The notes beneath the pieces were generated by a model. That model ran no database searches. It was not told where the DNA came from and worked only from the letters and a program-made list of their open reading frames with translations. Made by a program: the position numbers and the translations under genes. A stretch of DNA of 39,308 bases from sequence record ON528722. The stretch is one strand, 5' to 3'. Positions 33,261 through 35,247 of the stretch are shown here, piece by piece. The DNA is from Shigella phage ESh9. Numbering within the stretch: position 1 is the first letter of the stretch; each line of letters begins with the position of its first letter.

Positions 33261-33312
33261 AAGTGATAATCATAAAGGCCACACATATAGTGCGACCTTG
33301 AGTCTATCACTT
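33261..33312 (-). promoter_or_regulatory. RNase III-type processing hairpin after gene 0.3
   Basis: aagtgataatcataaaggccac...gcgaccttgagtctatcactt with terminal inverted repeats. Confidence 0.55.
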
Positions 33313-33769
33313 ACTGCACTTGCCAGCGGCGTCCGAACTCGTCAATCGTAAAGCAGCCTTGAAGCGGTGCGCCTTTAGGCACTTCTTGGAAGCTACCCGG
33401 CAGACGTTCAGCCTTGTAACCGTCGATTCCTTTAGCGTACACCAGACCAGCCGTGTGAGTCTGTGATTTGTATACCAGTACGCAATCTTGCTCCCACTCA
33501 TTGCAAGCTAAGCGTGCAACATTGAGTGCCTGCGCCTTGTCCTTGCAGCGTACACGAACCGTTTTTTCCTCAGTCGGTGCGCTTGCGATTGCCTCACGAT
33601 AGCACCCGGTCAAATCGGTTGACTCAACGGAGCCATAAAGACCCGGAAAGGCACGTAAAGTGCTAACCATGTGGCGGTGGCGACTCATGTTCACCTCATC
33701 GTCGAGGTTGGAACGGAAAGCTGACACCAGTACATAGAAGACGTTAGCAGGCTCTTTAGTGAAAATCAT
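33311..33769 (-). CDS. 0.3: S-adenosyl-L-methionine hydrolase/lyase (SAMase), anti-restriction gp0.3
   Basis: 152 aa; MIFTKEPANVFYVLVSAFRSNL...GCFTIDEFGRRWQVQ recalled as T3 SAMase. Confidence 0.9.
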   Translation of the reverse strand: MIFTKEPANVFYVLVSAFRSNLDDEVNMSRHRHMVSTLRAFPGLYGSVESTDLTGCYREAIASAPTEEKTVRVRCKDKAQALNVARLACNEWEQDCVLVYKSQTHTAGLVYAKGIDGYKAERLPGSFQEVPKGAPLQGCFTIDEFGRRWQVQ

Positions 33770-33797: not shown

Positions 33798-33850
33798 AAG
33801 TGAATATCATAAAGGCCACGCTTTCAGTGCGACCTTGAGTTATTCGCTTA
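33798..33850 (-). promoter_or_regulatory. RNase III-type processing hairpin upstream of gene 0.3 (R0.3 analogue)
   Basis: aagtgaatatcataaaggccacg...gcgaccttgagttattcgctt. Confidence 0.55.
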
Positions 33851-33955
33851 TACATCGGTACACTCAAGAGCTATTTCCAGATTGTTAAAGAGCATGTCGG
33901 TCTGGTTTCGTTAGACCCTAGCGGCTTTCAGTGTCCCGCCTCACTGTCGTTTCAA

Positions 33956-33994
33956 TGTGGTACATCGTACCGTGCTTACTTCATGTTGTCAACC
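33956..33994 (-). promoter_or_regulatory. Host sigma70 early promoter A3
   Basis: Minus strand GGTTGACAACATGAAGTAAGCACGGTACGATGTACCAC: -35 TTGACA, 17-nt spacer, -10 TACGAT; matches recalled T7 A3. Confidence 0.8.
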
Positions 33995-34065
33995 ATTTTG
34001 TTTAACTTTATGTGCCGTGGTGCGCTTAAGTCACCTAGAAGACACCGAAGCGGTGGTTAACGTTA

Positions 34066-34104
34066 TGTGGTACATCTTACTGCGTTTACTTCATGTTGTC
34101 AATG
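34066..34104 (-). promoter_or_regulatory. Host sigma70 early promoter A2
   Basis: Minus strand TTGACAACATGAAGTAAACGCAGTAAGATGTACCAC: -35 TTGACA, -10 TAAGAT. Confidence 0.8.
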
Positions 34105-34194
34105 CCTGGTTTTCGTATGACTTATCAGGCTGTCTACTTATCCGGTTGACTCCGGTATCTCAGGGAGTGGCTTTAGGCCGTTGTCCCGTTGACG

Positions 34195-34232
34195 TGATGA
34201 ATAATAGCCTTAAAGGTAACTTAAAGTCAACC
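34195..34232 (-). promoter_or_regulatory. Host sigma70 early promoter A1
   Basis: Minus strand TTGACTTTAAGTTACCTTTAAGGCTATTAT: -35 TTGACT, 17-nt spacer, -10 like. Confidence 0.7.
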
Positions 34233-34275
34233 ATTAATTTTAATCTTTTATTAAATCCCTAATTCCCTCTTTAAG

Positions 34276-34298
34276 TATCCCTTTAGTGAGGGTAATTG
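34276..34298 (-). promoter_or_regulatory. T3-type promoter at the genome left end (phiOL analogue)
   Basis: Reverse complement CAATTACCCTCACTAAAGGGATA. Confidence 0.65.
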
Positions 34299-34369
34299 AA
34301 TTGACGATAGACACCATAGACAACTACATGGCATCACTACGGGTTAATAGTGGGTCTATCGGTCTGGTT

Positions 34370-34860
34370 GTCTTTAAGATAGCGCCACTCTTTAGGTGGT
34401 GGCTTTAGGTGGTGGCTTTAGGGTTTACTTTAGGAGTCTAACAGATAGGGACACATAGGGATGTACTATCGAACTGGTACACTAGGACACTCTTTAAGGC
34501 CTCCTTAAGCCATCCGCCACTTTAGGTATTGACTTTAGGCACCACTTTAGGCTATCCTATAGGCCACTTGAGGAGAGACCCAAGGTTAACCGAAGGTTAA
34601 ACCCTAGGGGGTAGGGCTGGCTTTAGGTGGCTTTAAGAGGGCTATGGGGGGTACTTGGGGTTCTTGAACTGTGAGATACCCATTCAGATTTTTGTGGTAA
34701 ATTCTTAAAGGGTCTCTTTAGGAACCCACTTTAGGTAAGGCCACACCATAGGTGAGACCATAGGCGCATCCCGAAGGGATAGCTAGGAGACACCAGAAGA
34801 CCCTGTAAGACCATTGCGAACTACAGGGCATCTTTAGGTATAACCTTTAGGGTTGACTCT
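34370..34860. repeat. Arrays of short CTTTAGG (CCTAAAG on the coding strand) repeats in the genome-end / concatemer-junction region
   Basis: About 15 dispersed 7-mer copies, e.g. ctctttaggtggtggctttaggtggtggctttagggtttactttagg; T7-group genomes carry such repeats beside the terminal repeat. Confidence 0.75.
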
Positions 34861-35223: not shown

Positions 35224-35247
35224 TCTCCCTTTAGTGAGGGTTAATTC
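35224..35247 (-). promoter_or_regulatory. T3-type promoter near the genome right end (phiOR analogue)
   Basis: Exact reverse complement of AATTAACCCTCACTAAAGGGAGA. Confidence 0.8.

Follow-up and report, generated by a model that had tools for sequence, protein, structure and literature searches.

Analysis of 39,308 nucleotides from Shigella phage ESh9 (sequence record ON528722; the whole of this stretch is hereafter called the window) identifies three sites on its minus strand as the host promoters A1, A2 and A3 of a T3-type early array, an assignment to which we give a probability of roughly 0.9. The array is already known: it is the textbook trio at the entering end of a T3-like genome, and its recovery here re-identifies a very well-studied array in a new T3-like isolate, which helps annotation and is unsurprising. 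The comparative analysis adds that A2 and A3 are stable, ancient paralogues and that promoter cassettes are gained and lost around a conserved core made up of A1, a leader and A2. The unexpected result is that leader, a candidate structured RNA encoded between A1 and A2.

Three host promoters at the left end of a T3-like genome

The three promoters, in window positions, are:

34201..34230, minus strand: promoter A1, with -35 TTGACT at 34230-34225, an 18-nt spacer and -10 TATTAT at 34206-34201 (10/12 consensus matches; aligned to the annotated T3 A1)
34074..34102, minus strand: promoter A2, with -35 TTGACA at 34102-34097, a 17-nt spacer and -10 TAAGAT at 34079-34074 (10/12; aligned to T3 A2)
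33964..33992, minus strand: promoter A3, with -35 TTGACA at 33992-33987, a 17-nt spacer and -10 TACGAT at 33969-33964 (10/12; aligned to T3 A3)

Their identity as host promoters follows from base-for-base alignment with the -35 and -10 signals annotated in T3, together with their correspondence to T7. The curated T3 record AJ318471 annotates the -35 and -10 elements of A1, A2 and A3 as E. coli promoters, alongside phiOL, A0 (a leftward promoter inside the terminal repeat), R0.3 and gene 0.3; in pairwise comparison the stretch from phiOL to R0.3 is 95% identical to T3, and all six hexamers are kept. The starts listed for A1, A2 and A3 in the T7 reference NC_001604 (498, 626 and 750) likewise correspond to the window sites. 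Across both strands of the 39.3-kb window there are six 10/12 matches to the sigma70 consensus, and half of them are A1-A3, packed into 270 nt of one strand. With the threshold lowered to 9/12, a 3.5-kb region holds five sites against 4.1 expected, i.e. there is no enrichment overall.

The geometry of T7 A1 places the predicted A1 start at about 34193; the A2 start is predicted at about 34066, and the A3 start at 33956 from the identity of TACGATGTACCACAT with T7 A3 (start 750). The T7 A3 sequence TACGATGTACCACATG is identical in the window up to the start site, after which the window continues ...CACATTG; the start regions read AUCGAGAGGGAC in T7 and GUCAACGGGAC in the window. A first-pass annotation of this DNA had proposed three host promoters A1, A2 and A3, and the 10/12 matches and the T3/T7 orthology confirm them, all on the minus strand. 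It had quoted plus-strand text for promoters that read on the minus strand, and the start coordinate that it gave, 33956, coincides with the A3 start predicted by homology to T7 position 750. Its placement of A1 upstream of A2 holds as well, at a distance of 128 bp (-35 to -35) instead of the proposed 125 bp. What tells against the assignment is that start sites, strength and sigma70 dependence are all carried over from relatives by homology.

The genomic setting is that of the T7/T3 arrays. Megablast searches with the array region and with 25 kb of the window returned T3-like Autographiviridae genomes at 92-97% identity, including T3, Serratia phage 2050H2, Citrobacter phiCFP-1 and many Klebsiella phages, and by these matches the ESh9 window is a T3-like Autographiviridae genome. 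The array region is carried by roughly 490 genomes in INPHARED. The phage forward map corresponds to the minus strand of the window, which is circularly permuted: T3 position 1 falls at window 34676, the physical left end, and the terminal repeat (~230 bp) is present in one copy only, at 34676-34447. Read rightward on the minus strand, the order is phiOL (34298-34276), the promoters (34230-33964) and the start of gene 0.3 (33769). The array thus sits after phiOL and ahead of the first early gene, no further than about 0.8 kb from the left end, and its distance of 447-721 bp from the genome end is the T7/T3 distance.

Several further features accompany the array. Short-repeat arrays of the CTTTAGG type flank the terminal repeat (34388-34860), resembling the concatemer junctions of the T7 group. 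A 101-amino-acid (aa) open reading frame (ORF) on the opposite, plus strand (33957-34262) runs across all three promoters and can almost certainly be dismissed as spurious; several GenBank relatives carry annotated 'hypothetical proteins' across the same non-coding leader, e.g. LS3_01 and the '0.01' of CR44b (also locus L021, 450-605). The phage-forward strand has a fourth 10/12 sigma70 site, TTGACA-17-TAGAGT (31431-31403, minus strand), at the end of the ORF at the gene 0.7 position; this is where the minor promoter C of T7 lies, in front of the gene for the RNA polymerase. Lastly, A0 (34529-34558, plus strand) and an inverted A1 (34201-34230, minus strand) agree at 21/30 positions, including 11/18 spacer bases, a value that about 0.1-0.2% of spacer shuffles attain. 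As a sign that A0 is an inverted paralogue of A1 this counts as weak: the likeness is confined to T3-like phages and missing from T7, and the area is rich in CTTTAGG, such that the resemblance may be incidental.

A2 and A3 as old paralogous cores

A2 and A3 form a direct repeat of 38 nt, from the -35 to about +2, in which 34 of 38 positions are identical (89%), with the two starts exactly 110 apart. The window contains the shared 17-mer TTGACAACATGAAGTAA two times and no more, where 0.09 occurrences would be expected even if three mismatches were tolerated. To test homology, segments that do not overlap were aligned from their -35 hexamers: the cores, taken from -35 to about +9, score 56, against 11.8 +/- 2.2 for shuffles, none of which reached that value (0/2000). 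The likeness extends well beyond the hexamers, with the first 11 spacer bases after the -35 being identical (ACATGAAGTAA), the spacer as a whole matching at 14/17 positions and the discriminator/start segment from the -10 to the start at 9/9. Because this identity in spacer and discriminator/start exceeds what promoter function is known to need, common ancestry of the two cores is the economical reading of the sequences. A1 was considered as a further paralogue and rejected, since it gives a shuffle-level score against the other two and has a different spacer and start region.

Two independent sequences could also have converged on a strong sigma70 optimum without any duplication. The flanks of A2 and A3 have nothing in common, as such an origin would allow, and a -10 followed by a GTAYYACAT start segment recurs in unrelated myovirus promoters, e.g. 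TAGAATGTATCACATC in LTH01, which suggests a functional optimum for this part of the promoter. Those myovirus promoters, however, lack the A2/A3 spacer, and it is in the spacer that the 11 initial bases are shared; moreover, A1, which is conserved to the same degree and in T7 is no weaker, differs wholly in its spacer and start region. We consider convergence improbable.

The relation between the cores is old. In 17 distinct genomes having both promoters, the mean core identity is 0.93 for A3 with A3 and 0.85 for A2 with A2 between genomes, while A2 with A3 averages 0.76 within a genome and 0.77 across genomes. The nearest neighbor is an orthologue for all of the 34 cores, the two of the window included. 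The A2 signature (...GCAG-TAAGAT, mostly with an 18-nt spacer) and the A3 signature (...ACGG-TACGAT-GTACCAC, with a 17-nt spacer) are each kept across Teseptimavirus and Teetrevirus. Given these signatures and the orthologous neighbors, the split of A2 and A3 predates the divergence of T7-like and T3-like phages, and the data support an old paralogy inherited as separate orthologues, without general homogenization by conversion.

The window stands out among these genomes in having the highest within-genome identity of A2 and A3 (0.89, as against 0.77 in T3 and 0.69 in T7), which raises the question of whether part of this similarity stems from recent gene conversion or recombination on top of the old duplication. 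In favor of such an event, the window A2 has an A3-like 17-nt spacer, and its AGTAAAC is of the A3 type of T7-like genomes (TTGACAACATGAAGTAAAC), whereas most A2 orthologues have AGTAACATGCAG and 18 nt. Nevertheless, the window retains both the A2-specific GCAG-TAAGAT and the A3-specific ACGG-TACGAT, every core is closest to an orthologue, and polymorphic spacer positions show no co-variation between A2 and A3 across genomes. The 17-nt variant of the window A2 is common to loci L008 and L010, and the high identity is explained by this spacer together with the retention of GTACCACAT. Recent conversion is improbable, if slightly less so than convergence, and we retain inheritance of two separate old cores.

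How the two cores arose is a separate matter. Compared over the 65 nt that precede each of them, A2 and A3 score at the level of shuffles, in the window, T3 and T7 alike, and a covariance-model scan for the leader module that precedes A2 found no second copy upstream of A3. Duplication of a 110-bp tandem unit cannot be shown from these sequences, and, with no residual similarity in the flanks, the two cores may stem either from tandem duplication or from short-patch copying. The first-pass annotation had invoked an ancient tandem duplication of an almost identical 40-bp core with copies about 110 bp apart: the spacing and an ancient paralogy of the cores are borne out by the figures above, the core itself is 38 nt at 89% identity, and the shuffle-level flanks give no sign of a tandem 110-bp unit.

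Outside the T7/T3 clade, A3 is absent from the Cronosvirus and Drulisvirus loci examined. Other cassettes of the same family occur elsewhere: TTGACAgcctcctttaaaagctgTAAGATgtaccac is present in some Teseptimavirus and in Kayfunavirus. This distribution indicates that short promoter cassettes may be gained, lost or transferred between phages. An extra cassette, TTGACAgcctcctttaaaagctgTAAG(A/C)Tgtaccac, is present in some Teseptimavirus and Kayfunavirus loci (L017, L027, L030, L041, L048, L055 and L057), at +254 from the leader in L017 and +163 in L027; it is not found in the window.

A three-hairpin leader RNA between A1 and A2

In distant blastn matches to the array, conservation reaches furthest in the DNA that separates A1 from A2, and not in any hexamer. 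This interval (34193-34103, minus strand) encodes a three-hairpin leader RNA that makes up the first ~90 nt of the A1 transcript:

34157..34193, minus strand: helix P1, a three-tier stem-loop of GUC/GAU, GGGA/UCCC and GGC/GCC (alignment-free fold test)
34141..34156, minus strand: hairpin P2, ACCGG-AGUCAA-CCGGA (covariation; model R1, 84 bits)
34131..34140, minus strand: single-stranded linker UAAGUAGACA (near-invariant in T7-like genomes)
34104..34130, minus strand: hairpin P3, GCCUG, a 17-nt conserved loop AUAAGUCAUACGAAAAC and CAGGC (covariation; model R2, 65.7 bits)

A common layout unites 45 distinct sequences: an A1-type promoter, ~40 nt of variable sequence, a short hairpin and then UAAGUAGACA-GCCUG-AUAAGUCAUACGAAAAAC-CAGGC, with the leader running up to the next -35 hexamer in most T7-like genomes. 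P1 begins at the predicted start of A1 or a few nucleotides from it. Its sequence is variable, with helices that differ in at least eight lineages (the middle tier being GGGA/UCCC, CAC/GUG, AGC/GCU, GGC/GCC, GAGA/UCUC or CAGC/GCUG). Of 29 distinct sequences, 27 adopt a single three-tier stem-loop that is unbranched and spans them end to end, compared with 12.7% of shuffles.

In P2, four of the five pairs have changed on both sides, both in an ungapped seed and in an Infernal alignment of 57 hits (30 distinct); stem variants include CCGG/CCGG, CCAG/CUGG, CCAC/GUGG, CGGG/CCCG and CCUG/CAGG. None of 500 shuffles reaches any of the five measures used, and sliding the register by 1-3 columns drops the paired fraction from 93% to 8-48%. 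The linker that follows is also conserved in five unrelated large myoviruses, with single-base variants in K64-1 (AAGTAGTCA) and 121Q (AAGTAGACC). P3, whose loop measures 16-17 nt across copies, stops 1 nt short of the A2 -35 hexamer. It was invariant in the first set of sequences, whose fetch pattern fixed its 5' arm; after this arm had been left free and distant copies added, three of five pairs show compensatory change, 97% of cells are paired and 0/500 shuffles reach the covariation score. The P3 variants are GCUUG/CAAGC, UCCUG/CAGGA, ACUUG/CAAGU, ACCUG/CAGGU and GCCAG/CUGG, with GUCAG/CUGAC as a further one. G-U pairs in the leader stems occur on the transcribed strand only. The leader model finds a copy in 57 of 59 sources, never more than one per genome, and on the early-gene strand wherever the orientation is known.

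These counts come from the seed, the Infernal alignment and the tallies of pairs; a plain MAFFT alignment of the complete leader, folded with RNAalifold, had missed P1 and P2 on account of gaps inside the hairpins. The Infernal alignment is itself fitted to the structure, and the leader sequences are phylogenetically related. Three points weigh against an RNA reading. Fold stability is modest (mean z = -1.4; window z = -1.17 relative to shuffles); the fetch pattern used part of the invariant block and so inflates the conservation of its 22-mer; and the 3' arm of P3 with the A-tract is at the same time the upstream flank of A2, where a constraint akin to that on an UP element could explain some of the invariance. 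With single-sequence stabilities being unremarkable, the case is built on covariation and conserved architecture.

Rfam 15 holds no match to the leader: the sole hit is to RAGATH-9, at 18 bits against a gathering threshold of 75 (E = 4.3), and it falls elsewhere, at 34222-34431. The leader appears to be undescribed in the searchable literature, where a sequence search gives only papers printing the T7 template, and nothing specific was found there on a T7 leader RNA, on T7 boxA or antitermination or on mapping of the transcription start sites; the classic T7/T3 subscription literature lies outside this coverage. Readings of the invariant block as an RfaH ops element, a DnaA box, a Fur box, an IHF site or a sigma-dependent pause were discarded by eye as misfits to the respective consensus.

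Distribution of the leader core

A pattern scan of viral sequences fetched 44 loci. The leader module is present in Teetrevirus, Teseptimavirus, Kayfunavirus, Cronosvirus (Melnykvirinae), Drulisvirus (Slopekvirinae), Limelightvirus and an Aeromonas phage, and T7-like podoviruses with the leader core span at least seven genera. The same pattern, run against 185,579 bacterial and archaeal genomes, matched one 2.7-kb contig of a metagenome-assembled genome, which is most likely phage DNA. An origin of the leader in the host, or mimicry of a host sequence, was accordingly discarded: a blastn search with 34050-34200 found no match in 5,426 E. coli genomes, and that contig was the one match elsewhere.

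The core, consisting of AAGUAGACA and P3, is also present in jumbo and rV5-like phages unrelated to T7, as a single copy in each and directly behind a strong or near-consensus sigma70 promoter. The Asteriusvirus EJP2 (Escherichia phage, 349 kb), reached through a weak blastn hit, has a CTTGCA-17-TATAAT promoter with the core ~18 nt past the predicted start, in the form AAGUAGACA-UCCUG-UAAGUCGUACGAAAAC-CAGGA and in the 5' untranslated region of a gene. The same arrangement recurs in 121Q (Asteriusvirus), LTH01 (Vequintavirinae, 141 kb), K64-1 (Alcyoneusvirus, 346 kb), Erwinia phage Hallingskeid (366 kb) and two IMG/VR jumbo-phage contigs (the non-T7 core loci being L061, L063-L066, L070 and L103). 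The start region of these myoviruses, ACAUCAAGACGGGG, resembles those of T7 and the window. With model R2, the window yields one copy, its sole strong match at the score given above, and the initial 50 kb of EJP2 likewise one. In EJP2 and LTH01 the core lies ~2 kb from the end of the record and reads inward; with two such records, a placement near the genome end is at most suggestive.

A looser pattern, AAGTAGACN{6,7}TAAGTC, gave mostly chance matches, two of its 64 new loci being convincing by covariance model, and locus L060 was set aside as a chance match. In the jumbo-phage contigs L070 and L103, ~100 nt downstream of P3, the transcript of a second tandem promoter begins ...CGTAGACA..., repeating the GUAGACA core motif.

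Flanking elements and early genes

The elements around the array are:

33882..33894, minus strand: boxA-like TGCTCTTTAACAA, past A3 in the common leader (the one exact match in the window; 0.03 expected)
33798..33850, minus strand: RNase III hairpin corresponding to T3 R0.3, between the leader and the gene 0.3 mRNA (aligned to the T3 stem-loop R0.3)
33311..33769, minus strand: gene 0.3, S-adenosylmethionine hydrolase, the first gene behind the array (152-aa ORF; matching DNA is so annotated in T3 and relatives)
34276..34298, minus strand: phiOL, a promoter for the phage RNA polymerase of T3 type, ...ATTACCCTCACTAAAGGGA..., just upstream of A1 (aligned to T3 phiOL)

The 13-mer TGCTCTTTAACAA, which we take to be identical with the rrn boxA consensus, is present once in each of 37 fetched T7-like loci and lies 3' of the last host promoter where promoters were mapped. 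In the window too it stands in the transcribed leader downstream of the promoters, as a putative site of NusB/NusE binding. The function of boxA with the Nus factors has been described (PMC5725501). The boxA is overlapped by a weak promoter-like site (CCGACA...GATAAT, 9/12) in T3 and phiYeO3-12.

The R0.3 repeat has a 53-nt direct copy at 33261-33313 (minus strand), 81% identical and 537 nt away, and the pair flanks gene 0.3; the second copy, just past the gene 0.3 stop, is presumably the next RNase III hairpin. Next downstream on the minus strand comes a 369-aa ORF at the position of T3 gene 0.7. The phiOL core recurs as a second 16-nt copy at 35226-35241 (minus strand; TCCCTTTAGTGAGGGT on the plus strand), and the two T3-type cores, at the phiOL and phiOR positions, bracket the genome ends.

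Functional interpretation of the leader

The A1-A2 'spacer' may represent an undescribed class of phage early-leader RNA, most attractively one acting on the host RNA polymerase or its termination factors, a proposal that we rate at somewhat below even odds. The leader is conserved as a structure, from which a function can be surmised. In particular, the core is near-invariant in phages that share only enterobacterial hosts, which suggests that its target in the host is conserved. Alternatively, RNase III might release an RNA that acts in trans or as a decoy.

The block might instead work as DNA, either as an UP-like or otherwise activating element for A2 or as a recombination linker that moves cassettes. 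It abuts the A2 -35 in most T7-like genomes, with an A-tract at about -40 to -46, and ~85-90% identity across subfamilies would fit a horizontal spread of cassettes. This reading is weakened because the block outlives the A2 hexamer, persisting where the latter has been lost or displaced (phiYeO3-12, Kayfunavirus, LIMElight), because the next promoter in the myoviruses is 6-48 nt away at a variable distance, and because the position of the leader is fixed relative to the start site upstream of it. Compensatory substitution in the P2 and P3 stems and the restriction of G-U pairs to the transcribed strand speak against it as well. We consider a DNA element alone unlikely. Among the options, we would place a cis element that modifies the first elongation complex, or shields it from termination in the untranslated leader, ahead of a stable RNA released by RNase III and acting in trans on a conserved host target, and the latter ahead of a partly DNA-level element of A2.

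The A1-A3 region has been described as a non-coding, transcription-dependent 'internalisation signal', by means of which the genome is drawn into the cell by E. coli RNA polymerase, with promoter C driving gene 1 (PMC11863960). Drawing on T7/T3 biology, one can envisage that host RNA polymerase binds A1-A3 once the leading end (the first ~0.8 kb) is inside the cell, and that it would transcribe an untranslated leader of >400 nt, past boxA, where Nus factors would load. RNase III would then separate the leader from the 0.3 mRNA at R0.3. Transcription would proceed into genes 0.3, 0.7 and 1 and thereby pull in the rest of the genome. The P1-P3 RNA of the leader may act on or with the host transcription machinery along this path, e.g. 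by preventing termination of the first untranslated transcript. If unrelated enterobacterial phages do keep a core of ~40 nt nearly unchanged in their first transcript, this RNA probably engages a conserved host component at the first step of infection, and the sequence in question has been inside the standard T7 A1 transcription template for decades.

Comparison with known systems

Relative to the T3 and T7 arrays, the window is the same in its position with respect to the terminal repeat, phiOL, R0.3 and gene 0.3, in the identity of the hexamers and in the homology of the A2 and A3 cores, which T7 and T3 also have. It differs in that its A2 has a 17-nt spacer, not an 18-nt one, and keeps the GTACCACAT start context that has been lost in T7 A2.

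In the rrn leaders of E. coli, strong promoters in tandem precede an antitermination signal, boxA. The phage region shares with them tandem, very strong sigma70 promoters, a long untranslated leader and, in the phage, an exact boxA-type 13-mer. In contrast to the rrn leaders, it is without a recognizable boxB/boxC arrangement, and its P1-P2-P3 RNA lies ~250 nt upstream of boxA and is made from A1 only.

The put RNAs of phage HK022 are nascent two-hairpin RNAs that render host RNA polymerase resistant to termination. Like them, the leader is a structured RNA directly behind an early sigma70 promoter, in single copy per transcription unit, in a setting of long early transcripts that depend on the host polymerase; unlike them, the leader of the T7 group has three hairpins and an invariant single-stranded segment. 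The likeness is one of position and structure only, and the leader could work in the manner of put without our claiming membership of that family.

In the PeSL cassettes of T4-type phages, an early sigma70 promoter is joined to a conserved stem-loop, and these many-copy cassettes mark the borders of shuffled gene modules. The leader described here differs in being single-copy and tied to the first transcription unit; the two share the joining of promoter and stem-loop in otherwise unrelated contexts, which is compatible with modular spread.

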